Shown piece by piece: positions 13,020 to 45,538 of a DNA stretch of 64,000 nucleotides (positions within the stretch are counted from its first letter, which is position 1; each line of letters opens with the position of its first letter). A program made the translations under genes and the position numbers. Source of the stretch: Heteronotia binoei (lineage: Eukaryota). The notes below the pieces were generated by a model. The model searched no databases. It saw nothing but the letters and a program-made list of their open reading frames with translations, and was not told where the DNA came from. Location of the stretch: positions 45,694,001 through 45,758,000 of the forward strand of contig NC_083228.1 in the NCBI RefSeq assembly GCF_032191835.1. The letters are read 5' to 3'.

Positions 13020-13660
13020 GGGCCTCACCACACATTCCCCACTGATTCGTCCCTTTGCTGCCCTTGCCCAGTACCCATCAACCCTGTGGCAGGCTGACCT
13101 TGTCCCCACCCCATTGAGAGCCCCCTAGGCGTGGGTGCTGCCAAGGCCGGTGGTGGTCCACTGGCTGCCCCTACCCCACTCACCCCCAAGGACTCACTGC
13201 TTAGTGTCCATTTTCCTGTTGCTGCTCCTGCGTCTGTTGTCTCCTTAACTGCCTCGTCCTCCGACTCCTGCAGCTGGGCCAACCTGGCATAGAGGGCTTG
13301 CCGCTCCTGCTTGCATGCCATAGACCTGGTGCATTTATCAGGGGCGGCTGCCTTAGATGTGCCAGTATCGCTCCTCTTACGCTTCTCAGCCTTGGCTCTT
13401 TCCATGGCCTCGATCTTGGCTGCCAGGTTCCACAATGAGGGCCCTTCCTCATCCTCTGAGGAGGATAGGGCTACTGGCACCCGTCTGGGAGCCCTCTTAG
13501 CCAGGCCACCCTTCTTCTGTACTGCCTTCTTGGCTGGCATTCTGCGTCTGATGGGGAAAAAGAGGGGGGGAGGGTGGCCAAAATTAATAAAGCATAATAT
13601 GCAGTAAGCCATCGGGTCCTGGTCCCCTGCTCCAGCAACAGCCCCCTCCCACATCAGTAG
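13020..13660 (-). mobile_element. 5' fragment (leader plus gag N-terminus) of a DIRS/Ngaro-like element
   Basis: ORF MPAKKAVQKKGG...SSSEDEEGPSLWNLAAKIEAME...ALYARLAQLQE. Its basic start, acidic patch and L-x-x-L-x-x-L-Q helix parallel the gag N-terminus at 37430-37720. Confidence 0.6.
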
Positions 13661-28575: not shown

Positions 28576-31500
28576 GGACTTCCGGGGTTAGAAAACAGCG
28601 GGCTGAGTTGTTTTCCCTAATGGGGACAGGCTGGCACTTCTGTTCAGGGTAGTAAAAGGCAAATTAATTCCTTCTGCCTACATTTCTCAGCTAGAGAATT
28701 GTCCAAGATATGCACAGATACTTTGAGGAGACTTATCTTGGCTGAAAGGGAGTCTTGGGGGGGGAGGGGCTCCTTTGAGGCTTTGAGGGATCTCCAGAGA
28801 GAAGTTGCATATTCATTGTCTGCAGAAGTTTCCAGAGTCATCAATTCGACAGGATCAAAACTTTCTTTTACAATTTTAAACATCTAATCGACAAAGGACT
28901 GGTGTTGATTTGGATAAACTATGGAAAAAAGGTACTGATTTCTATCTACTAATTAAAGTTAAACAAAACAAAAGTAAAAGGTGGAAATACTGAAAGCCTG
29001 AAAGGAGAAGAAGATAAGGGGCTAAATTTGAACTTTGTAAACTTAAAAGATAGTGTTAAAAGAAGAAAGGAATGTATTGTTTAGTCTATCTGTGGTTGAG
29101 GAGGCAGCCCCATCATTACAGATCTGCAGCGTTCACAGTCAACACAGGAAATATGTCAGATATCATGAGATTTCTCTACCAGTGAAACGAGATTTGAAGG
29201 CAAGAAAAGCAGGAAGTATTGGAGGAAGAAGAAGGAAGTCAACGAAGTAAACAGCCTACTCTAGGATTATAATACCAGAGAGAAACATCGGTGGCCATTG
29301 TTGTTGGGAGGACTACGTTTTAACATCATTTTTAAAGTGACTGGGACATTAAAAATTGGTGGAGTTAACAGATTTGGCAATTAAAAAATTACTACTGTTG
29401 GATAGTAGATGAGAAGACTTGAACTGGTAAAAGGGAAAAAAGAATTTTTTTTTAAAGTGAAGCAAAAGTTGTGACTGCCATTTTGGGAGAAATAAAAGCT
29501 TTAAACATTAATATCTGAGCCTGGGAGGCTCAGAGGACAGCGAAATTGGGTGCATTGGAAAGGGCAAGCTTCACTTTATCAAACCTGATGGTTCAAATTT
29601 AATTTGTTGAGATCAAAATTTTTGATCTTTTTTTACATGTCAGTCTCAAAACAATCTCATGCTAGGTCTGCTTCAATAGAGAAAATGCAAGCCCAATTAG
29701 ATGCAATGGAAGCTAGGATAATGAAGGGGGTGAAAGAAATGATAACTGCCTCTAAAAAAGAAATAAGAAAGGATATTGAGAACTCAAAAAAGAATTAAAA
29801 AAAGAAATAGAGAATCTCAGAAATGACACTGTGGTAATAACAAAGAAAGTACAAGAAGTGGAAGAGAGAGTGAAAACACATGACTCCACCTTGTTAAAAT
29901 TACAAGAAAAAGTGACAATTCATGACTGCAAACTGATGGAAACTCAGATTCATCTGAGAGGTGTACCTGAAGATGAAGAATCAGGCCTGAAAGAATACAT
30001 AATAAAAATAATTGCAGAATTTTTGGAGGAAGATCCTGAAGAGAATAGAAATATGTATGACTATATGTATAGAGTAAATTCACTCTATGCAAAAAAGAAC
30101 AATCTACCAAGAGATGTGGTCATAAGATTTATGACAAAAGAAATGGTGGGAAAGATCATGAATAGAAACTTTGAAAAGTCATTGATAGTGGGAAGCAGTA
30201 GAATAAGAATTATGAAAGGACTGCCAAGACAAGTGCTAACTGATAGAAAGGCATATAAAAAAATGACAAAAAATTACATGACAATGGAATGAGGTACAGA
30301 TGGATAATACCTGAAGGTTTGAGCTTTGAACTTCAAGGGAAAAGGATTACAAACACAAATACACAGAAACTGCGTAGATTTTATGAAGAAAATAAAGAAT
30401 TTGCACCATAATGGATTGCAAATTGATATCTTGGAATGTAAATGTACTAAATTCACCACAAAAAAGAAAGGCAACATTTCATTGGACAAAAAAACAAAAT
30501 TGTAATATAGTATGTTTACAAGAAGTGCATATTAGACAAAAGGATTATACATTTCTGTGGAATAAACAATTGGGACTAGAATTTTTTACATTGGCTGAAC
30601 AGAAGAACAGAGAAGTAGTCTTTTATATTAAACAAGAATTAGACCCGACATTGGTATTTAAAGATAAAGATGGAAGGTATATAGCGGTAGAAATTACTTT
30701 GAATGCCAAAAAAAAGTTGTTGTTGGGACTTTATGTCCAAATGGTGCTAAAGACATTTTCTTTAAAAATATTACACAACATCTTGATGAAGTGACCTATG
30801 AGCAAATTTTATTGATGGGGGACTTTAATGGAACAATTCAGAACACAATAGATCTGGGAAGAAAAAAAATGATAAAGAACGGAAATTGCCAAAGTCTTTT
30901 TTTGAGAGTTTGGAAGATATAGGGAGGAAGTTTAACCCTGAAGTACAGAACTATACCTTCCTTTCAGCTAGACATAGTTCTTTCTCTAGAATTTACATGT
31001 TGTGGGGTACTAAAGATTTGGGACTTATAACAAAGAAAATAGAGATATTACCTAAAATAGGAGCTGATCATAACCCAATAATGTAGATTACAAAACTGTC
31101 AAAAAAGTCAAGAAGATGGAGATTAAATGAAGATTTACTACAAAATAAAGAAATAGTGACATCTCTAGAAAATGAAACCAAAGTGTACTTCCAAGTAAAT
31201 GACAGAGAAGATATAGAATTTCAGAAGGTATGGGATGCCTACAAGGCAGTAATGAGAGGATTACTAATAACATTGAATAATAAAGACAAGAGAGCAAAAG
31301 ATAAACAGATGTTAGACATTCAAAATGAAATTAAGAAAAAAGAAGGTGAATTAAGGAAAAGGCCAGGGGGAAAGAAAATTATAAGGGAGATTACAATATT
31401 GCAAGCACAAATGAGACATCTGTTAAATAAATAATTGGAATGGAATTTGAAGAAATTAAAACAGAAATCTTTTGAGGGAGCAAATAAACCTGGAAAATAT

Positions 31501-34447
31501 TTGGCCAGGCAATTGAAGAAAAAAAGAGAAAGTAAAATTATTAATAAAATTGTGGCTGATGGAAGAGAGATGGTAGATCAAGAAAGAATAAAGAGAGAAT
31601 TTTTTAAAATATTGTGCTAAACTATTTAAAGGTGTTAAAGTAAAGAAGGAAAAGATGGAAGCATATTTGCAGAAGATTAAAATAGCACCCTTAACTGATT
31701 ATACAGAAAAAGTTTTGAATGATCCAATTGAAAAAAATAGAAATTGAAGTGGCGATTAATGCAATGAAAATTGGAAAGGCAGCTGGACCAGATGGATTTA
31801 CAGCAAAAAAATTAAAAACGTTTAAAGAAGAATTAATACTGAAACTTCAAAAATTAATGAATGTAATAAGAATAAATGGGAAAATACCAAATACAAGGAA
31901 GGAAGCAGTAATTTCGTTGATTCCAAAGGAAGATAGAGATGTCACTAATGTAAAGAACTATAGGCCAATCTCATTATTAAACAATGATTATAAGATATAC
32001 ACAAGAATCTTAGCAGAACAGCTTAAACAATATCTAATAAACTTTATAAAGGAAGACCAAGCAGGTTTTCCCCTAAAAGGCAAATAAGAGACAATAGTAG
32101 AACTGTTGTAAATATTGTAGAATACTATGGAAGATATCTAGAGAAGGAAGTTGCATTATTCTTTGCGGACGCAGAGAAAGCTTTTGATAATTTGAATTGA
32201 GACTTTATGTTTGCAGTAATGGAGAAAATAAAGTTGGGGGAAACCTTTATAAGAATGAGAAAAGCAATTTATACTGAACAACGTGCAAGGTTATGTATAA
32301 ATGCATTTCTTACAGAAGAAATGACAATCAGCAAAAGTACAAGGCAAGGTTGTCCGCTTTCACCATTGTTGTTTATAATGACTCTTGAAATCTTATTGCT
32401 GCAAATACAAGATGATGAAAAAAATGAAGGAATGAGAATTAAAGGATTTTCCTATAAATATAGAGCATTTGCAGATGATATAATGTTTATAAGTGAAAAT
32501 CCTATGCAAGTAACACCTTTGTTGTTAGCCAAATACAAGATTTTGGAGAATTGGTGGGACTTTATGTTAATAAAGAAAAGAAAAAAAATTGTGTAAAAAT
32601 ATGCACGTAAGTAAACAAAATGAATTGCAGAGATTAACGGGATGTGAAGTTACCCCTAAAGTAAAATATTTGGGTGTGGAAATAGAAATGAAGAATATTG
32701 ATCTGTTTAAATACAATTATGAAAAGTTATGGTGTAAAATGGACGAAGATATGATAAAATGGAACAAACTTAATTTGTCATTGCTTGGTAGAATAGCTGC
32801 AATTAAGATGAACATTTTGCCGAGAATAATGTATTTTGACAGAGAATTTATATGTAGTTCTCTGAAGGGGCTGCTAAAGAACAGGAATGGGAACACAGGA
32901 ATTAGCAGACAAGAGACACAACTGTAATTACAGTAAATATATATTTACCAGGACAGCATCCAATATTCAAAGTCGTTGCCAAGCCAGGGTCATACACAGT
33001 AAGCAGTCCAGGAAAAAACAAGGATTAAAATGAAAGGTTTAACAAATGCTAAAGAAAGAGGAGGATTTCAACTACCAGATTTAAGATTATATCATGAAGC
33101 AGTTTGTCTAGTGTGGATAAAAGATTGGGTGACGCTGTTGAATAAAAAACTTTTAACGTTGGAAGGTCATGGAAATAAATTCGGCTGGCACACTTATATG
33201 TACTATGGAAAGAAAAAGTTGGATTTTTTTTCTCACCATTATATAAGAAATAATCTACTAAATATTTGGATGAAATACAAGAAATATGGCGATGAGAGAA
33301 AACCACTATGGATAGTGCCAGCAGAAGTTATAAGAATAACAGCTGAGACAGGAGAGGATAAGGGATGTCATATAATCAATTACTAAAAATACAAAGCGGT
33401 AAAATAGAATTGAAAACTGCTGAAGAGTTGAATAATAAATATGATTGGTTTCAAATGCAACAAATAAAAAGTTTAGTGGAAAGTGATGTTAAAACTGAAG
33501 GAATAAGACGAGAACAAACAGAAATGGAAAAAGTTCTGCTTGGAGATAATGAAAAATTAATTTCAAAAATCTGTAAGTTACTTTTAAAATGGTCTATGGA
33601 AGATGAAGTAGTGAAATCTCAAATGATTAAGTGGGCAATTAATGTAAATAAAGAAATACAGATGGACACATGGGAATATTTGTGGAAGAACTCTATGAAA
33701 CTCTCAACATGTCAGAGTATTAAAGAAAATTGTTTTAAGATGATGTACAGATGGTATATGACTCCTAAAAAGTTGGCAAAGATGAACAATAAGATGCCAG
33801 ATAGATATTGGAAATGTAAAAAACATGAAGGTTCTTTCTACCATATGTGGTGGACTTGTGAAAGAGCAAAAAAGTATTGGCAGATGATTCAACAAGAGAT
33901 TTCTAAGATCTTGGGATATGAATTTAACAAAGTTGCAGAGACTTTTCTGTTGGGATTACAAATGGAAAAATTTCCAAAAGAAGATAGAACTTTAATCTGG
34001 TACTTGCTCTCAGCTGCTAGGACATTGTATGCACAGTTGTGGAAGCAAGAAAAAATACCAGAGAAATGGGATTGGATTGTAAAAGTTATGGCATGGAGTG
34101 AAATGGACAAGTTAACAAGAACCTTAAGAGACTATGATTTAGAAGTATTTAAGATGGAGTGGAAAAAGTTCAGACGATACGTAGAAAAAGAGTGGAAAAT
34201 AAAAGGACATTGGACAATTTTTGATAATGACTAAGTAAAAGAGGGAGGAGGATATTAATTTTGGTTCTTATTAATTAAGGGTACCTTTAATATTAAGATT
34301 TTAAGTATATAACACCAGTGGGGGTCAAGTAACGGGGGGAGGGGTGGGTAGAAAGTAATATATGGGATAGATAAAAAAATAATTATTAATGATGAAAGAA
34401 CTTGAAATTTATTACCATATGTTACTAATAAAATTGTTTGAAACAAA
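28576..34447 (+). mobile_element. Full-length degenerate L1 (non-mammalian type) with 19-bp TSD
   Basis: Starts GGACTTCCGG. ORF1 remnants ~29634-30410. ORF2 ~30411-34234 with APE motifs (ISWNVN, VCLQEVH, GADHNP), RT (TRQGCPLSPLLF, AFADD) and CCHC (WKCKKHEGSFYHMWWTC). AATAAA and A-rich end. TSD AATAAGACTAAAAGTCATG at 28557-28575 and 34448-34466. Confidence 0.97.
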
Positions 34448-35544
34448 AATAAGACTAAAAGTCATGCAAGCATAGGATATGGTCTGGGTTTGTAAGAGAC
34501 ATTCATAACGGGAGCATTTACCTTATTGGCACATTTTGTGAGCACACAGAAAAGAAGTTATTCTGAAGTTTTAACTTATGGTGCTCAAAAGACAGAATGG
34601 AATGTATCCTAGGATCTAGCTCAATGCAAAACAAAGGCAGCTGAGCATACAGGGAATTTCCCTAAGTAACAAAGAAGTGGATGTGTCACAAGGGGTAATC
34701 ATGAGTAGAAAATAATGATCTCCATATGGTTCACTTATGTTGTTGATCTTTTGGATGCTCAAATACCAGCTGTTTCCATATCAGCAAGCTATTCCACTGT
34801 CCCAGAGTTATGGATTCTGAAAGGATCTCCAGATGGAACTCTAGAAAAGTTGCCTTTAGAAATAAGTGCCTTACTGGTGAACATTGCTTAATTCAAGAAG
34901 GGATCAAGAGGAGAAGCAGAATATGTACCACTTTCCAAGACCATATGTATCACAGTAAGAGACGTTTAGCAAGGAATTAATGGTTTTCAAAACAGTTGTA
35001 AGAAAAAACCAAATTCACTAAACCTTATATTTGCCCCAAAACATCACAGCATTTGTTAATGTAATGTAATGTCATGTAATAGATTTTTTTTAAAGAAATC
35101 ACTGTTTCTAAATTCATTTAGATTTTTTAAAGAGAATCAAGGATTTTTTTTCTAAATGCATCTCAAAGAAGTGAGCAAAAGTCACATAGCATACAATATA
35201 GTTTAATGTATCCACTGATCCTGGGGGGGAAATTGTCTGTCTTTGTTTGATCTCTGATTTTAAGGGTATTAATTTAAGTTGAAATCACTTTAATTGGTCT
35301 CATTCAGCTGTTAGATGCATAGGCTTTCAATAAGCAGATGAGACTCATCTTTACACTATAGGGTTCAGAGGACCCTGTTGAAGTTAGGGTCTTACTCGTG
35401 CACTTCTATGGCTGCATTGGACCCTGTATAGGGTCTGCACTGATCTAAACATGTTTAAGAGCAGAGTGTTAGCAAACCACAAAGTGAGGGTGGTTTTTTT
35501 TTTTTTTTGCTTTGGTCAGAAATTAATGTGAATATGTTTAATTA

Positions 35545-36700: not shown

Positions 36701-37429
36701 TTCTTTAGTAAAATAAGATTTACTCATATCAAATAGCAATAGCACTATGTGCTGGACCTCCATGGATGGAAGGATCTCCTGTTAGCAGAATGGAACTTCT
36801 CATATTTTGCTTCCACCACAACCACAATGATCTCTGAAACACAGCTCCTGAAGGAAAAGGGAGCCCCAGGAACTGGATGAAGGAAAGTCAGAGATTTGCA
36901 GAAAGAAGGGAAGAATCAGCAACCCTCTTCAGTTAGAACAGAAAACCGGCCCCTTCCCAGCCAGGCCGGCTCACCGGCTAGAGGCTGGGGGCCGCGCTTG
37001 CCCTCCCAGAAGGAGGGAAAGCTGGTCCCCGTTATTTCCAGGCATGTGGGTAGGCTTCTGGGCGAGGCATCAGGGCTATAAAGGCCCTGGCCCCACCCAG
37101 TTCCACACAGTGGAAATTTGGCTCTTGGAGGGAGAGCAGCTGGTCGTCGGTATCGCATGGCTGGAGCCTGGGCGCGGCAGTGCATGCGAGGCCCTTAAGA
37201 GGACACACGGAGGTGCAGTGGGCTCAGTGCGCTAGCGACAGCTTGAGCACTGGGTTGCCCAGCGAACTGCAAGTTGGGGGGGTTTCTTGTGACAAATTGG
37301 GAGTGCTTTTTAGGGGTGCATGTGCCAGGCCAGCAGCTTTTCACACACACACACACCCGGGACCAGGAGTGGGACTCACACCCACCCCCCTTGCACTTAA
37401 TAGGGAGAGGGAGCCTTAGTCTTGGGGAC

Positions 37430-38812
37430 TGCCCCCCCCCAAAAAAAAAGAAAAGAAAGAAAGAGGAGCGTGTGCAGCGGACCCCCTCCTTTTTGGCGCT
37501 GATTGGTGAAGTTGACTTTTGAAAAGGAAGTGCTGGCTCATCTCTCTGCGTTACAGGGCATGGTCGTTGGCTCGGATATGCAGCAGGAATCGGATCAGGA
37601 AGCAGAGGTGGATACAAGAGAGGCCCTTGATGGGGAGCCTGTGGACCCCGGCGCAGGAGGGGCGGTGGTGGAGACAACCCCGGTGGTGGCAGTGGCTGTT
37701 ATCCCTTCGGGGATAGCAGGTAAGTTACCATTGCAACAGCAGCCGCCGACCTGGCCATGCGGCCTCCCCCAGCTGTCGGTTATCCATAATACACTGTATA
37801 TGGCGGGGTCACTGCCTGGGCAGCTGGCCCCTCCTGGGCAATACTGTCAGGCGGGACCTTCTTGGGCTTGGGGTGCACCTTTTGCCCCACTTCAAAGCCA
37901 GAATATGGCGGGTTCTGCCTCACAGCCCCCTTTGCAGTCGGCGGCTATGCCAGCGTCACAAGGTGCATCTACCTCACAGTCCGCACCGGGCATGCTGCCG
38001 TGGGGTGAGCAGCAGCAGTTGCTGCAACAAGGGGCATGGTCGGGGCACCCTTGGGGTGTGTGGCATTATCCACCGAGTCCTTATGGGTCTTGCCATATGG
38101 TGACACCGCATTGCCCCTGGGTGATCATTTGGCAATGGCTACCCAGGAAAAAATACTGAGAGGTGAATGCGGGGATGTTTTCAGTCTCCTATTTAGAGAG
38201 CTAGAAAAGAAAGACAGAGGAGCTAGACGACAAGGAGAAGGAGAAGCTGAAGCCTAGAGAGGTGGACAGGACTTGGGCCAACTGGCTGCCAGGTTTTCTG
38301 ATTTATGCTGGAATAATTGCAAGGGCACAACCTTTACAGGCAACAGCCCTTTTTCAGTATGTGATATTATCCACCATGCATATATGGACTTCGTTGGGGC
38401 CGCATGGTTGCAATATGACGAGGCCTTCAGAATGAGGGGGGCAGTCAATCCTGGTCTTCCCTGGGATCAAATTAATCAGCAACTCTGGCTGCAGTTAATG
38501 TCCCCGGCGAAGCCCAATACAGGTGATAGGGTGGATAGTGGGCATTTGGTGCACAGGCAGCAGAATACGGTTGGTGCCCGCAGTACGGCGGGCCAGTCGG
38601 TTCAACCTTGGCTGCTATGCTGGGAGTTTACCTCCAAGGGCATGTGTGCTAGAAAAGCCTGTAAATTTAAACACTATGCGGGGGGTCACATGCCTTCTCA
38701 GCTTGTAGCAGGTCAAAAACTAAGGGGAATGCCAAGCGCCCCGGTGGAGGGAGCAATCCGCAGCCGCCTGGAAAAGGGGCCCAGCCCCATATGTCTGAAA
38801 GTTCTTAGATAG
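37430..38812 (+). pseudogene. Ngaro gag-like ORF1 (frameshifted)
   Basis: Pieces: PPKKKKRKKEE, VLAHLSALQ, P/Q-rich linker, KILRGE.DVFSLL, AWLQYDEAFRMRGA, and CWEFTSKGMC...CKFKH finger. Confidence 0.85.
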
Positions 38813-39018
38813 TGGTTGGGTAATTATCCCGTGGTTGCCGACAGGGCCTATTTACTAGAAGGATTTAGCTTTGGTTTTAGGATTTCGTATCAGGGACCTA
38901 GAGTCCCTTGTATGGCCCCCAAACTTTGTTCGGTGATTGGGATGGAGCATGTGGTTAGGGCAAAAAAGCCAAGGAGTGTTCGGAGAGGAGGGTTCTTGGA
39001 CCCTTTGACGCCCCACCA

Positions 39019-40383
39019 GTGCCTATGTTAAGGGTATCTCCCTTAGGGGTGGTGCCAAAAAAGGTGCCAGGGGAATACCGTTTGATACACCACTTATACC
39101 CCAAGGGCAGCTCAGTGAATTATTCCATTCCTGACATTCTTTGTTCGGTCAGGTATACTTCCTTTAACCAAGAGGTCAAAGTGGTGCGGGGTTGTGGTGT
39201 GGGGGCTGAAATGGCAAAATGTGACATTAAGTCAGCATTTTGCCTGTTGCCAGTACACCCAGAAGATTTTGACCTCCTGGGGTTTTCGTTTGAAGGAAAA
39301 TATTACATGGATAGGGCCCTACCCATTGGATGCTTGGTATCTTGCGCCACCTTTGAGCGTTTTAGTTCCTTTGTGGAATGGGCGCTTAGGATTAAGTCAG
39401 GGTTAAACAACATGGTGCATTACCCGGATGACTACCTTTTCATGGGCCCTGCGGGGTTGGGGCAATGCGCCAGGTTGTTACAGTCATTTGAAGACCTGGC
39501 AAAGGAACTAGGGGTCCAGTTGGCCCATGAAATAACTGAGGGGCCCAGCTCGGTGATTACCTTTTTAGGCATCGAGCTGGACACTATTCAGCAAGCTTCA
39601 CAGCTGCCTGCAGATAAAGTGGAGGGTCTTAGGGGTCGTTTAGCCTCCCTTAAAAGGCAGTGCAAGGTGTCGCTTTTGGAGTTGCAGCAGTTAGTGGGGC
39701 ACCTCAACTTTGCATGCAAGGTTGTTGCGCCTGGCAGGGCCTTCTTGAGGCGGCTATGTGATGCCATGGGGTCCCTGCGGCTGCCTCAACATAGAGTTCG
39801 GATTACCACAGGTACGTGTAAGGACCTGGAGGTGTGGGAAAATTTTTTGGAATCCTTTAATGGGATTTCATTTTGGCAGGAGGAACTGAAGATAGAAGTG
39901 GAGCTTCAAATTTCCTCTGATGCAGCGGGCGCCACTGGTTTTGGAGTATATTTCCGGAGACACTGGTGCACGGAGCAGTGGCCTGCGGCATGCTTGGCCA
40001 GTAGTCTCTGTCGGGACCTCACCTTTTTGGAGTTCTTTCCCATTGTAGAGGCAGTTTGGCTTTGGGGAGAACAGCTGGCCAACCACACAGTTCATTTCTG
40101 GTGCGATAACATGGCTGTGGTACATGTTATCAACTCCCTGTCATCCAAGTCTCTAGCAGTCATGAATCTGGTGCGGGCATTCACGTTGCGATGCCTTAGT
40201 TTGAACATTTTGTTCCTGGCAAGGCATGTTCCAGGAGTGTGCAATGGGGTGGCAGACACTCTAACCCGTCAACAGATCGAGCGTTTTCGCCAGCTCGCTC
40301 CAGATGCAGATCTGCAGCCAGCACGTATGCCACGGGACCTTTGGCAGCTTGGAAAGCTAAAGCCGGTAGGGCGATTTGATTAG
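39019..40383 (+). CDS. Ngaro reverse transcriptase / RNase H (open 454 aa, catalytic motif mutated)
   Basis: SPLGVVPKK, KCDIKSAF, HYPDDYL (YLDD expected), SSDAAG, LEFFPIV and FWCDNMAVV motifs. Confidence 0.93.
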   Translation: MPMLRVSPLGVVPKKVPGEYRLIHHLYPKGSSVNYSIPDILCSVRYTSFNQEVKVVRGCGVGAEMAKCDIKSAFCLLPVHPEDFDLLGFSFEGKYYMDRALPIGCLVSCATFERFSSFVEWALRIKSGLNNMVHYPDDYLFMGPAGLGQCARLLQSFEDLAKELGVQLAHEITEGPSSVITFLGIELDTIQQASQLPADKVEGLRGRLASLKRQCKVSLLELQQLVGHLNFACKVVAPGRAFLRRLCDAMGSLRLPQHRVRITTGTCKDLEVWENFLESFNGISFWQEELKIEVELQISSDAAGATGFGVYFRRHWCTEQWPAACLASSLCRDLTFLEFFPIVEAVWLWGEQLANHTVHFWCDNMAVVHVINSLSSKSLAVMNLVRAFTLRCLSLNILFLARHVPGVCNGVADTLTRQQIERFRQLAPDADLQPARMPRDLWQLGKLKPVGRFD

Positions 40384-41235
40384 CTCTAGCACCAAGCGCT
40401 CGGAAAGCTTATGATAGGGTGGTGGAGCAATTCCGGGTTTTTAGGAGCGCGGCCAGGCTTTCGGATAGTTGGCTGGTCCCTGTGGCGCACATGTTACAAT
40501 TCTGCATTCATCAGAAGGGCAGAGGGTTGGGGCTCAGGTCAATTAAGGGACAATTGGCTGCACTTTCCTTTATAAGTAAATCGCAGGGCCTGTCTGAAGG
40601 CACTGGCGACTTCAGAGTGAGGAAGATGTTGGAAGGTTGGGCGAGGGAACGCGAGCCACAGGTGGATGCCCGACAGCCCATATCCCCGTCAGTGTTGAGT
40701 GGGCTTTACAAGGTTTGGCCAGATGTATGTTTATCTTCCTTCGAGGCGGCGCTTTTCCATGCTGCCTCTTTGGTGGCCTTTTTCGGCACCCTACGGATTA
40801 GTGAGTTGGTGGTGCAGTCAAAAAAGGATACCTCGGAAAGGGCGCTTCAGGCTAGGGACGTCAAATTCAAAGGGGGGCAAGCTCGGGTGACAGTAAGTCG
40901 GTCCAAGACGGACCAGCATCAGAGAGGCACAGTGATTATAATTGGGCGGTGTGCTTCACCGGATCTGTGCCCTGTCGCTGCATTGGAGCGGTATATACCG
41001 CTCAGGGAGAGAGCAATGGCCCCTTGTTTCGCCATAGCGGGGGTTCCCCCCTAACTAAATACCAATTTTGGGTGGTGACCGGTAAGGCACTGGCAAAGTT
41101 GGGGTCGGGGGGGTTAAATTAGCTACACATTCATTCCGAATTGGTGCCGCATCCACCGTGGCTGCTATGGGTTACACCCCTTGGGCTATACAGCGGTTGG
41201 GGCGTTGGTGTTTGGCCGCCTACCGGTCATATGTT
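40380..41235 (+). pseudogene. Ngaro tyrosine recombinase (frameshifted)
   Basis: FFGTLRISE, RSKTDQ and LCPV; after a frameshift HSFRIGAA...LGRW...YRSYVRP. Confidence 0.92.
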
Positions 41236-41337
41236 CGCCCGTTGGCCTTTCAGTGAGACCAGGGGTGATGGACAGATAGTTGCTATGTTGCTTGTTGGCA
41301 TATATTTTTGGAGTTGTGACTCTTTTCTGTTTTTCAG

Positions 41338-41923
41338 GTGCTGTGGCTCATAGGGAGAGGCGTCGAATCCTCATCTGCAGGCACAGTATGATTTTTTGCA
41401 CCAGGCCAGGAGATTGCTGGTTGGCACCCAGCTGGGTCTCAGTGAGTGGGCGACTGTAGAGTGGCTGGGTTGCCGTTGGCCGGGGATCATGCCACTGTTG
41501 TTCCGCGAGAGGAGTGCACCTCCTCCACACATTTTAGGCATCCACCTTGGGGACAATGACCTTGGGTTTATGAAGGGGAAGGCCCTTTCATTGCAGGCAC
41601 GGGATGATATGCGGGCCATTAAGTGGAGATGGCCAGGAGTTCTGTTGGTGTGGTCAGCAATTCTGCCACGTAGAGTATGGCGGTATGCTTTGTCCCCTGC
41701 TGGGATAGAGCGTGCCAGGCACAAGGCCAATAGGGCCTTGCAGAAGGTCATGGAGGGGGGTTTAGGGATGTTTCTCCCCCATCTGGCCATACGAGTCGAG
41801 GATGCCACCTTGTATAGACCGGATGGGGTGCATTTATCCAAATTGGGTAACCGGGCCTTTTTGGAAGAGATTAGGCTGGGGTTGCGGTTGGCTCTGGGCT
41901 GTCCAGTGGGCGCTAATGCCTAA
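41338..41923 (+). pseudogene. Ngaro accessory SGNH/GDSL-type hydrolase ORF (one frameshift near 41398)
   Basis: Block I-like ILICRHS, block III IHLGDNDL, block V YRPDGVHLS. Preceded by a splice acceptor. Confidence 0.85.
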
Positions 41924-43124
41924 GCAGAGGCTTGGCATTAATGGTGGCAGGATGAGGTATGAGCGACAGTATTTATTCAGGGGAGCACCTATGGCCCTGG
42001 TGCAGGTGGTCTGCATGAACTGCAGATGGGCTGTATGGCTCAATGCATGGAGTGCAGATCACGGCAAAGCCTCACCAGGGCAGATCTTTTCAGAGGGATT
42101 GATGCTGGCCTAGGGGGAGGTGGAGTTTGGGCCTGGCCACTCAGCACCAGCCAGAATGTTGGGCTTGTGCTGGCGGCAGGGTGGCTTGCCCTCCAAGGAC
42201 AAGGCGGGGTCCTGTGGTTGACCCCAGGGCTTGTCCTGTTAGGCCTGTACCCCTTGCCATTCTAGTTGATTAAGTTATCTTTAATAAAGCGGCCCGGTTT
42301 ATCCAATATATTGTGTCAGCCTCTTTATTCCGATTGGGGGGGGGGAAACCGGCCCCTTCCCAGCTGGGCCGGCTCACCAGCTAGAGGCTGGGGGGCCGCA
42401 CTTGCCCTCCCAAAAGGAGGGAAGGCTGGCCCCCGTTATTTCCGGGCATGTGGGTAGGCTGCTGGGCAAGGCATCAGGTCTATAAAGACCCTGGCCCTGC
42501 ACAGTTCCATGCAGTGGAAATTCAGCTCTTGGCTCGCCCACCCGCCCACCCTGTGGCAGTACAGGTCATCACCGGTTGCTTATTAGGGGCCAGGTAGGAA
42601 TTTTTTCATTTTCACAGAATTGGCCTATGTGAATTTGTTTTTCGCCTACCTTGTACTGCCTGATAGTTTCAGGACGTTGTGGTGGAGTTATTAGTTTGGT
42701 CGCTGGGCAGGATGAGGTATGGGCTACAGTGTTTGTTCAGGGGAGCACCTATGACCCTGCACCAGCAGATGCAGGTGGTCTATATGAACTGCAGATGGGC
42801 TGTACGGCTCAATGTGGGGAGTGCAGATCACGGCAAAGCCTCACCGGGGCAGATCTTTCCAGAGGGATTGATGCTGGCCTAGGGGGAGGTGGAGTTTGGG
42901 CCTGGCCGCTCAGCACCAGCCAGAATGTTGGGCTCGTGCTGGGGGCAGGGTGGCTCACCCTCCAAGGACAAGGCGGGGTCCTGTGGTTGACCCTAGGGCT
43001 TGTCCTGTTAGGCCTATACCATTTGCCATTCTAGTTGATTAAGTTATCTTTAAAAAGCAACAAGTCACAGCGGCCCGGTTTATCCAACATACTGTGTTAG
43101 CCTCTTTATTCGGACTGGGGGGGC

Positions 43125-44801: not shown

Positions 44802-45538
44802 GAGCTTTTTCACACAGCCTAAGTATTCCGGTATAGCAGCTGGCCAGTTACTGAACAGTAACGGGTTTCTGCTGGCATTTCAGACAGACCCGATTCAGTA
44901 ACTGGCTGCTACCGGAATACTCTCACCTTTTCACACACTCCCGCGGCTGTCCCGGTAGTGAGGCGTGCCTGAGTCATCACAAACAAAGAGCAGCTTCTTC
45001 CACTTTTCAACCCCTCCTTCCGGGTTGAAATCGCTATGGGGTGCTGTGTGAAATGTCCAGTATCTAACCCGGGAGCAGTTTTCGCACCGTTTTTCGCCCG
45101 CCGGCGCGCGCGATCTCCGGCTTTTTTTTTTTTGAACGTCAGTTTAGATTGATATAGCAATATATCGCTATATCGACCTGTCAAAACAGCACCACCATAG
45201 GGATGGCTAGGCTCCGTTGCAATCCCTATGGTGGTGCTGTTTTGACAGGTCGATATAGCGATATATCGCTATATCGATCTAAACTGACGTTCCAAAAAAA
45301 AAAAAAGCTGGAGATCGCGCGCGCCGGCGGGCGCAAAACGGCGCGAAACCGGCTGGCGCTGGTGGAAGCGAGATAAGAGCGGAACAGTGTGAAATGGCTC
45401 GCTTCAATCACGCTTCAATCACGGAACCCTACCGGGGGAAAAAAATGTGTATGAAAACTCCCATCGCTGTCTCGGATTACTGCAAGCGGCACAATACCGA
45501 CTCCCTTCTGGTTTCCACCGGTAAGTGTGAAAAGGCCC
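44802..45538. mobile_element. CpG-rich PIF/Harbinger-like non-autonomous element with long internal palindrome
   Basis: TIR GAGCTTTTTCACAC / GTGTGAAAAGGCCC. TSD ATA. Internal arms ~45079-45204 and 45222-45348. Confidence 0.75.

Follow-up and report, generated by a model that had tools for sequence, protein, structure and literature searches.

Layout of the element

The window—the whole 64-kb stretch of DNA analysed here—carries at 36943-43123 a decayed Ngaro-type tyrosine recombinase (YR) retrotransposon, a known kind of element, with the following features:

36943..37128, + strand: split direct repeat A1, identical to A2 at 167 of 186 aligned bases
37077, + strand: TATAAA within A1, a probable promoter
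37503..37719, + strand: surviving coding part of exon 1, the Gag N-terminal leader (second helix and acidic linker)
37717..37725, + strand: major 5′ splice site CAG/GTAAGT, phase 1, common to both predicted splices
37720..38808, + strand: rest of gag after the donor (Pro/Gln-rich part, conserved core, Cys/His knuckle), with several frameshifts
38690..38712, + strand: candidate tandem 3′ splice site for reverse transcriptase (RT), its AGs ending at 38708 and 38711, in phase with the RT start
38770..40383, + strand: RT/RNase H (RVT_1, E=6.8e-09), with a stop and a frameshift close to its start
40259..40276, + strand: second 3′ splice site, its CAG ending at 40275 (boundary 40275/40276), inside the RNase H coding sequence and in phase with YR
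40276..41256, + strand: YR exon, with a stop at 40377 and frameshifts near 41000-41100
41316..41338, + strand: hydrolase 3′ splice site (branch-like GTGAC at 41316-41320, pyrimidine tract, CAG/G)
41338..41923, + strand: SGNH hydrolase exon (Lipase_GDSL_2, E=0.0022, below the curated cut-off)
41946..42342, + strand: repeat B1, identical to B2 at 369 of 397 aligned bases
42283, + strand: AATAAA within B1, a probable poly(A) signal
42346..42532, + strand: repeat A2
42706..43123, + strand: repeat B2, which forms the end of the element

The repeats show the Ngaro-like arrangement A1 ... B1 A2 B2, with a 173-nt spacer separating A2 from B2, and gag, RT/RNase H and YR follow each other in Ngaro-like order on one strand. 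RT was called via Pfam and YR via homology to Pfam phage-integrase proteins, while gag, which has no Pfam hit, was called by its position and by the match of P0174, a protein of the leader class described below, to 38396-38796 (E=2e-32). No methyltransferase domain was found after RNase H in the RT/RNase H ORF at E<=1, RNase H running into YR; the absence of this domain separates Ngaro-like from DIRS-like and PAT-like elements. Downstream of YR lies an SGNH hydrolase ORF, as in amphibian Ngaro-like members. The first-pass annotation had noted that such ORFs are reported in vertebrate Ngaro elements, and Xenopus DIRS-53_XT and DIRS-54_XT carry one (PMC9210276). Its view of the copy as decayed also holds: stops and frameshifts affect gag, RT/RNase H, YR and the hydrolase exon, and the present copy is dead. 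No second full copy was found within the 64-kb window, and none of 144 pattern matches to DNA copies in the genome contig collection was confirmed.

SGNH/GDSL enzymes are recognised by blocks I (Ser), II (Gly), III (Asn) and V (Asp-x-x-His) together with the SGNH fold. Across 29 relatives of the hydrolase, S154, G187 and N216 are invariant and H308 is conserved in at least 90%. The structure predicted for P0011 finds its matches among PAF-acetylhydrolase-like SGNH proteins (best E=3e-8), and the closest solved relative by sequence is the ZfL2-1 ORF1p esterase (PDB 4c1b, E=0.00054). The family is thus of the SGNH/GDSL type, with a predicted esterase activity; the window copy is broken, with substitutions in blocks I and III and a frameshift near 41396-41399, because of which the block-I frame leaves the hydrolase after some 20 codons and meets a stop after 39 codons.

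One donor and its predicted acceptors

The first-pass annotation had proposed that a perfect donor inside gag is joined in frame to a 3′ splice site ahead of the hydrolase, across an intron of 3.6 kb, and both sites and the match of their phases are confirmed in the sequence. The donor ends its exon at 37719 (boundary 37719/37720), in phase 1 of ORF 37503-38159, and is the sole 9/9 consensus match among the 372 GT sites of the element. Taken alone it exceeds chance only modestly: by chance the 64 kb should hold 0.47 +/- 0.66 such 9/9 matches and holds two, a number that 7 of 100 shuffles reach. The hydrolase acceptor, whose CAG ends at 41337 (41337/41338), closes the 81-nt gap after the YR stop and ranks joint first by pyrimidine count (3 of the 246 YAG sites of the element). 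A pattern modelled on this acceptor, and hence tailored to the site, has four matches against 0.34 expected (0/100 shuffles). The phases of the two sites agree, and the intron would measure 3618 nt.

The acceptor ahead of YR has a weak tract in the window copy, 57 of 246 YAG sites scoring equally high. Its position is suggested by P0160, a leader+YR protein whose alignment to the window begins exactly at 40275 (E=2e-88), and no ATG lies between the TAG at 40197 and the YR core. The start of the YR exon is codon-compatible with the RNase H frame of the window at 7/8 positions in P0160, 6/8 in P0161 and 5/8 in P0173, tied for best in each, although this test is permissive and the chosen junction was not top-ranked for P0163, P0167 and P0170 (3/6). 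For the candidate RT acceptors, 14 and 27 of the 246 YAG sites score equally high.

Fusion proteins in squamate gene models

All external support comes from predicted gene-model proteins. Of nine protein matches, eight are RefSeq proteins of Eublepharis, and all eight carry a leader. At its end each leader has a V-A/L-x-V-x-P-like motif, alignable with the pre-donor peptide of the window; a translated pyrimidine tract is present in none of the eight. The annotated relatives run from a Gag-type leader through a junction glycine into the hydrolase from the acceptor codon onward. Among 14 proteins compared with the block-I frame, seven matches start exactly at 41337, three start one codon earlier and three later, and one protein gave no match.

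In total, 22 leader-bearing proteins were collected (3 from Eublepharis, 2 from Rhineura and 17 from Hemicordylus; four were among the query sequences), of which 15 continue into the hydrolase, six into YR and one into the Gag C-terminus; a leader+RT fusion was found in none of the 22. P0172 and P0173 are isoforms X3 and X1 of a single Hemicordylus locus, LOC128328362, identical over 139 aa, one being a hydrolase and the other a YR fusion. RefSeq isoform variants are generally expected to have transcript support. Likewise, P0159 and P0160 agree at 137/138 aa and P0038 and P0161 at 98/100. The two cleanest pairs diverge first at a residue that is G in one partner and D in the other; codons for both start with G, as expected from a phase-1 donor. 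Cluster sizes of 23 for P0173 (leader+YR) and 24 for P0162 indicate that such gene models recur. The fusion of a Gag N-terminus to the hydrolase foreseen by the first-pass annotation is therefore the architecture seen in RefSeq relatives, but it was an incomplete description, the same donor apparently also serving YR.

Other gene models depart from this scheme. Among 150 hydrolase representatives, leaders of <=25 aa occur in 15, and in 11 the leader falls into a cluster of YR or RNase H fragments. Hydrolases with a short predicted N-terminus contain more Phe/Cys immediately before block I (0.10 in 17 proteins against 0.02 in 79; p=2e-5), which would be expected where predictors read through a pyrimidine tract. 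On distant hydrolases, seven long leaders form a candidate second class, with an R-x-x-P-P-x-R-L/F-S/R-P-type motif that follows an N-terminal amphipathic segment.

The Gag leader

A profile of 11 hydrolase leaders, built without the window sequence, ranked ORF 37503 best of 2092 six-frame peptides (E=0.0012; runner-up E=0.55), the match stopping two codons before the donor; with a broader 13-sequence profile the same ORF ranks poorly (E=17). A basic Gag N-terminus, as claimed at first pass, is found in 10/10 intact relatives checked (7-13 K/R within the first 24-40 aa), but the surviving exon-1 peptide of the window is acidic, its 72 aa including 3 K/R and 13 D/E. Neither a start codon nor the basic segment can be recognised in this copy; when 37100-37500 was searched for the latter, a PPKK-like match near 37435 was all that appeared, and it is insignificant.

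A search for full-length Gag with the Gag C-terminal ORF of the window had no hit among 259 candidates of 323-2000 aa—a weak piece of evidence—and none of the 22 leader-bearing proteins is a full-length Gag, so that only the window sequence and P0174 identify the leader as the N-terminus of Gag. Atlas searches returned no usable match for the P0011 leader and just ‘hypothetical protein’ clusters, with recognition below the mark, for the Gag C-terminal ORF. A homodimer prediction for residues 33-93 of the P0011 leader scored 0.06 against a mark of 0.32 and counts neither way.

Proposed expression strategy and its alternatives

From the sites and phases that the window shows and from the fusions annotated in RefSeq, we infer spliced mRNAs and their translation, and consider it likely that alternative splicing gives squamate Ngaro retrotransposons their downstream enzymes, a single phase-1 donor some 110-200 codons inside gag serving both splices. 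RNA left unspliced would be genome and Gag message. Splicing to 40275/40276, across a 2556-nt intron, would yield a Gag-N/tyrosine recombinase, which in full-length relatives measures 455-487 aa, and splicing to 41337/41338 a Gag-N/SGNH hydrolase of about 300-370 aa; the gag remainder at 37720..38808 would be absent from both spliced RNAs.

Could the fusions instead be prediction artefacts, in which a strong cryptic gag donor is linked to ATG-less ORFs, with YR made by frameshifting and the hydrolase by re-initiation or from an internal start? For YR, frameshifting is quoted as a proposal (PMC13003380), and the RNase H and YR frames do overlap in the window, at 40276-40383; predictors also build other chimeras with the hydrolase exon. 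The hydrolase frame, however, does not overlap that of YR in the window, which excludes a frameshift from YR as its source. The first-pass annotation had stated that no ATG precedes block I, which is true of the interval downstream of the in-frame TAG at 41277; an in-frame ATG is available at 41268, immediately upstream of that stop. The sole ATG in the open hydrolase frame lies 3′ of the catalytic serine, and a start at this Met was rejected, as the product (like P0007) would lose its nucleophile. Moreover, one junction residue joins two different acceptors at a single locus (P0172/P0173), the architecture is repeated across three lizard lineages and many loci, and predictors never fused RT in the leader-bearing proteins. 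We therefore hold an artefact to be quite unlikely.

A mixed scenario, in which the hydrolase is truly spliced while YR arises chiefly by frameshifting and leader+YR transcripts are a minor by-product, appears equally improbable to us. It would accommodate the weak YR acceptor of the window copy, the different acceptor position in P0163 and P0167, and the conserved RNase H/YR overlap, which frameshifting would need too. Yet an acceptor embedded in RNase H explains this overlap equally well, its position is apparently common to a gecko and a cordylid family (P0160, P0161, P0173), and the leader+YR cluster of P0173 has as many as 23 members.

Least probable of all, and only barely credible, is an origin of the fusions from internally deleted, non-autonomous copies with leader and enzyme contiguous in DNA: spliced RNAs, with the terminal repeats still in place, might be mobilised in trans by retrotransposition, but a single locus gives both fusions as isoforms, placing both exons downstream of the leader there, the junctions coincide with the splice-site boundaries of the window, and copies with precise intron loss would prove splicing anyway.

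If the enzymes are spliced onto a shared leader—a basic N-terminus, an acidic patch, two helices and a flexible linker—this leader might act as an address tag bringing both to the Gag/RNA particle or the nucleus, a speculation to which we give an even chance. It would do the job of Gag-Pol readthrough in LTR elements, and the hydrolase might then act on membranes much as the ZfL2-1 ORF1p esterase would. A wider version, hinted at by the in-phase tandem acceptor at 38708/38711 and the second leader class, has one donor and three acceptors supply RT/RNase H, YR and hydrolase of vertebrate Ngaro elements alike as Gag-N fusions, without frameshifting and also outside squamates, which would turn the two-helix leader into a universal packaging tag; this we find doubtful.

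Relation to known systems

The nearest counterparts are Xenopus DIRS-53_XT and DIRS-54_XT, which share the A1...B1-A2-B2 repeats as well as gag, RT/RNase H, YR and SGNH ORFs (PMC9210276). There, the four ORFs overlap and the function of the SGNH hydrolase is described as unproven, whereas the window hydrolase is free of overlap with YR, and YR and hydrolase are apparently second exons on a Gag N-terminus; ‘splic’ and ‘intron’ occur zero times in the available text of that paper. The newt Ngaro-like element Bou1, with reported transcription in testis, also has split direct repeats and an RT/RNase H overlapped by YR in another frame (PMC13003380). According to this 2026 paper, Poulter and Butler 2015 ascribe YR translation to probable programmed ribosomal frameshifting, whereas the evidence here favours a splice acceptor inside the overlap.

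The first-pass annotation had likened the hydrolase message to spliced retroviral env, a loose analogy in that the predicted product is a fusion keeping the Gag start rather than an ORF with its own ATG. What would be shared with retroviral env and foamy virus pol is one major donor with several acceptors, a catalytic ORF on a spliced subgenomic RNA and an unspliced RNA that is both genome and gag message. The foamy major donor, however, lies in the LTR R region upstream of gag (PMC5294762), while the Ngaro donor lies inside gag, so that its products would retain a Gag segment; Ngaro also has no env or DDE integrase and integrates via its tyrosine recombinase. The ZfL2-1 ORF1p SGNH esterase binds phospholipids and likewise follows a basic, helical/coiled-coil N-terminal part (PMC3905857). 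It is encoded in one ORF1, whereas Ngaro would build a similar architecture by splicing, its activity and lipid binding being predicted. Alternative splicing also sets retroelement protein ratios in plant Ty1/Copia, where shGAG splicing makes Gag alone (PMC5580714), and third accessory ORFs of LTR elements, including rotifer GDSL ORF3s, are said to come typically from spliced messages, with no Gag fusion described in the accessible text (PMC5408684). As far as these two sources extend, neither system puts an integration enzyme behind a Gag leader.

Our literature search found no report of Gag-leader splicing in Ngaro, although older reviews, Repbase and supplements may mention spliced ESTs; the available portions of PMC6681497, PMC7192593, PMC8547959, PMC3783388, PMC9341512, PMC6338049 and PMC4157794 describe no such splicing. 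Splicing of the Gag N-terminus onto YR and hydrolase is thus probably a real and undescribed expression strategy of a known element. Frameshifting being the one printed proposal found for Ngaro YR, splicing would offer an alternative for the overlapping ORFs of the DIRS order. If true, the real recombinase and hydrolase would exceed the ORFs of TE libraries by 110-200 residues, and anyone studying the bare ORFs biochemically or structurally would be working with truncated proteins. The orphan hydrolase would gain a context, as a Gag-tagged esterase built like the LINE ORF1p esterases, and many ‘uncharacterized’ squamate RefSeq genes would be spliced transposon transcripts. Some hydrolase gene models carry a phosphatase, RT or Gag-core piece, and the strong hydrolase acceptor may account for the hydrolase domain at the C-terminus of other predicted proteins.

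The Ngaro-type element and its state

A GC-rich insertion carries the remains of a gag, reverse transcriptase/RNase H (RT/RH; Pfam RVT_1, E=6.8e-09), a tyrosine recombinase (YR) and an SGNH hydrolase (Pfam Lipase_GDSL_2, E=0.0022, under the curated cut-off). It was assigned by its layout, which matches that of the amphibian Ngaro-like elements in the accessible text of PMC9210276.

Features of the element (window positions)
36943-43123, plus strand: Ngaro-type element, GC-rich insertion (composition, repeats, domains)
36943-37128, plus strand: split direct repeat A1 (167/186 identical with A2)
41946-42342, plus strand: split direct repeat B1 (369/397 identical with B2)
42346-42532, plus strand: split direct repeat A2 (partner of A1)
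42706-43123, plus strand: split direct repeat B2 (partner of B1)

Since stops or frameshifts interrupt all of its ORFs, this copy is dead. The nearest named relatives of its hydrolase are leopard gecko proteins (60-67% identity). In the 173-nt spacer between A2 and B2 (42533-42705), a donor-like site (42594) and an acceptor-like site (42617) lie close together.

Splice sites in gag and ahead of the hydrolase

The first-pass annotation had proposed that gag is spliced to the hydrolase ORF, and both sites and their agreeing phases were confirmed. The donor, CAG/GTAAGT, ends its exon at 37719 in phase 1 of ORF 37503-38159 and is the sole perfect site among the 372 GT positions of the element; the acceptor ends at 41337, is preceded by a pyrimidine tract with a branch-like motif upstream of it, and ranks joint first of 246 YAG sites. 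The donor 9-mer occurs twice in the whole window (0.47 expected), a count that 7 of 100 shuffles reached, so the donor proves little alone. The proposal requires amendment in three details. Rather than no ATG ahead of block I, the catalytic-serine motif, there is an in-frame one at 41268, shortly before a TAG at 41277; and the supposedly basic Gag N-terminus is seen only in intact relatives, the exon-1 peptide surviving here being acidic. Third, the block-I frame of this copy departs from the hydrolase near 41396-41399.

Another acceptor-like site, at 37403 (within the best 14 of 246), lies shortly upstream of a run of C and A near 37435. This run bears a weak likeness (insignificant score) to the PPKK with which the leader, the Gag-type segment preceding the donor, begins. 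The region 37380-37460 may hold what is left of the gag start, together with a 5′ UTR intron.

Related gene-model proteins join a Gag leader to two enzymes

Searching with the hydrolase ORF gave nine matches among 179 candidates: eight RefSeq proteins from Eublepharis and a single Logan protein, which begins at a Met after the catalytic serine. All eight Eublepharis proteins carry a leader aligning with the Gag-frame peptide upstream of the donor and, past it, resemble the window from the acceptor onward; none of the eight contains the translated pyrimidine tract. When 14 proteins were compared with the block-I frame by tblastn, the match started exactly at 41337 in seven, one codon earlier in three and later in three, with no match in one. 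A profile of 11 leaders, cut ahead of exon 2 and excluding the window sequence, placed ORF 37503 top of 2092 six-frame peptides (E=0.0012, the runner-up having 0.55); its match stops two codons short of the donor. The contrary result came from a broader 13-sequence profile, with which the window leader scored poorly (E=17), as would follow if its first half has been lost.

A leader-alignment search of 8000 scored candidates yielded 22 RefSeq proteins (3 Eublepharis, 2 Rhineura, 17 Hemicordylus), four of which were already in the query. The leader is followed by the hydrolase in 15, by tyrosine recombinase in six and by the Gag C-terminus in one; in none of the 22 does it continue into RT or full Gag. 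P0172 (X3) and P0173 (X1), isoforms of the single Hemicordylus locus LOC128328362, share 139 identical residues before diverging into hydrolase and recombinase, respectively, and the pairs P0159/P0160 and P0038/P0161 share 137/138 and 98/100 residues before the same split. Both P0172/P0173 and P0159/P0160 first diverge at a G/D difference, which fits a common first base from a putative phase-1 donor. P0174, of the same leader class, matches the window Gag C-terminus (38396-38796, E=2e-32), which links its leader class with gag of this type.

The match of P0160 to the window begins exactly at 40275 (E=2e-88), where a CAG ends within the RNase H coding sequence and a phase-1 join leads into the YR frame. 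That frame has no ATG from the upstream stop at 40197 to the recombinase core in the window. In a permissive codon-compatibility test against the window RNase H frame, the YR-exon starts of P0160 (7/8), P0161 (6/8) and P0173 (5/8) were each joint best; the chosen junctions of P0163, P0167 and P0170 were not top-ranked, the next position being joint best in P0170. The YR acceptor is weak in this copy, 57 of the 246 YAG sites scoring equally high.

The gene-model proteins support the splicing reading and would extend it to the recombinase; judging from them, we consider it probable that a Gag leader is spliced onto both enzymes.

Proposed expression strategy

Transcription would probably start in A1 (TATAAA at 37077) and end in B1 (AATAAA at 42283). 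Unspliced RNA would provide Gag and genome, one splice Gag-N/YR and another Gag-N/hydrolase. A tandem AG at 38708/38711 (region 38690-38712), in phase with the RT frame and followed by an in-frame ATG, is a candidate acceptor for RT expression.

In the model of P0011, a natural leader-hydrolase protein, leader helices 32-52 and 74-93 (pLDDT ~67-80) lie inside a low-confidence region; the SGNH domain is confident and matches PAF-acetylhydrolase-like folds. Across 29 relatives the catalytic residues are conserved, and among solved structures the nearest in sequence is that of the ZfL2-1 ORF1p esterase, a protein in which, according to the accessible part of PMC3905857, a coiled coil is paired with a lipid-binding esterase. 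The leader may be a targeting or co-assembly tag.

The Ngaro hydrolase ORF is already known and called functionless (passages of PMC9210276, PMC6681497 and PMC7192593), and Poulter and Butler 2015, as quoted in a passage of PMC13003380, regarded YR as probably expressed via programmed frameshifting. We found no mention of Ngaro gag-to-YR/hydrolase splicing in literature searches or in the accessible passages of PMC6681497, PMC7192593, PMC8547959, PMC3783388, PMC9341512, PMC6338049 and PMC4157794; an earlier mention in print is, in our judgement, unlikely though hardly negligible. Spliced foamy virus pol (PMC5294762), Copia shGAG (PMC5580714) and the spliced ORF3s of LTR elements (PMC5408684) are functional analogues, and the accessible text of these three sources describes no integration enzyme behind a Gag leader. 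The element is of a known kind; its expression strategy appears to be new.

Breadth among database proteins

Profile searching of 1.84 billion representatives returned 2215 proteins (E<=0.001). Among the best 150, the leader exceeds 60 aa in 79, spans 26-60 in 10 and is <=25 in 15; the others are large multidomain proteins (26) or lack a recognisable block I (20). The leader profile matched 15 of these 150, 11 of which had been used in building it, and a second N-terminal motif is common to seven long leaders. Eleven of the 150 group together by having a fragment of YR or RNase H fused to the hydrolase; this cautions that gene models readily attach this exon to other sequences. Proteins with short N-termini have more Phe and Cys ahead of block I than those with long ones (17 and 79 proteins, p=2e-5), as would follow from read-through of a pyrimidine tract.

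P0010, P0030, P0087 and other large proteins (1000-3100 aa) have between one and six such hydrolase domains at their C-terminal end, possibly a domesticated hydrolase exon; their N-termini presumably recall ZNF638/matrin-like proteins. Cold-shock (CSDE1/CSD) and this SGNH domain co-occur in 11 of 32 scanned proteins (P0045, P0069, P0079, P0091, P0095, P0098, P0101, P0105, P0130, P0138 and P0150). A Helitron-captured SGNH gene is reported from platyfish (PMC4021074). In P0014 a dual-specificity phosphatase N-terminus is fused to the hydrolase, a combination that an acceptor trapping host exons would be expected to produce.

Other features of the window

A further ORF, open over 171 codons, lies apart on the minus strand (13540-13025; leader profile E=8e-10) and represents the N-terminal leader of a different family of this type. 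Neither RT, YR, Gag core nor hydrolase was found in its vicinity, and it could be an exapted exon or a copy cut short. Its ATG has a strong 3′ splice site 7 nt upstream, which hints at a 5′ UTR intron ahead of gag; donor-like sites lie at 13380, 13197 and 13183.

The AT-rich stretch 29000-35000 has strong positive GC and AT skew, which would be typical of a plus-strand LINE. At 45074-45354 there is a long, MITE-like inverted repeat with 86-nt arms (95% complementary) and 60-nt outer arms.
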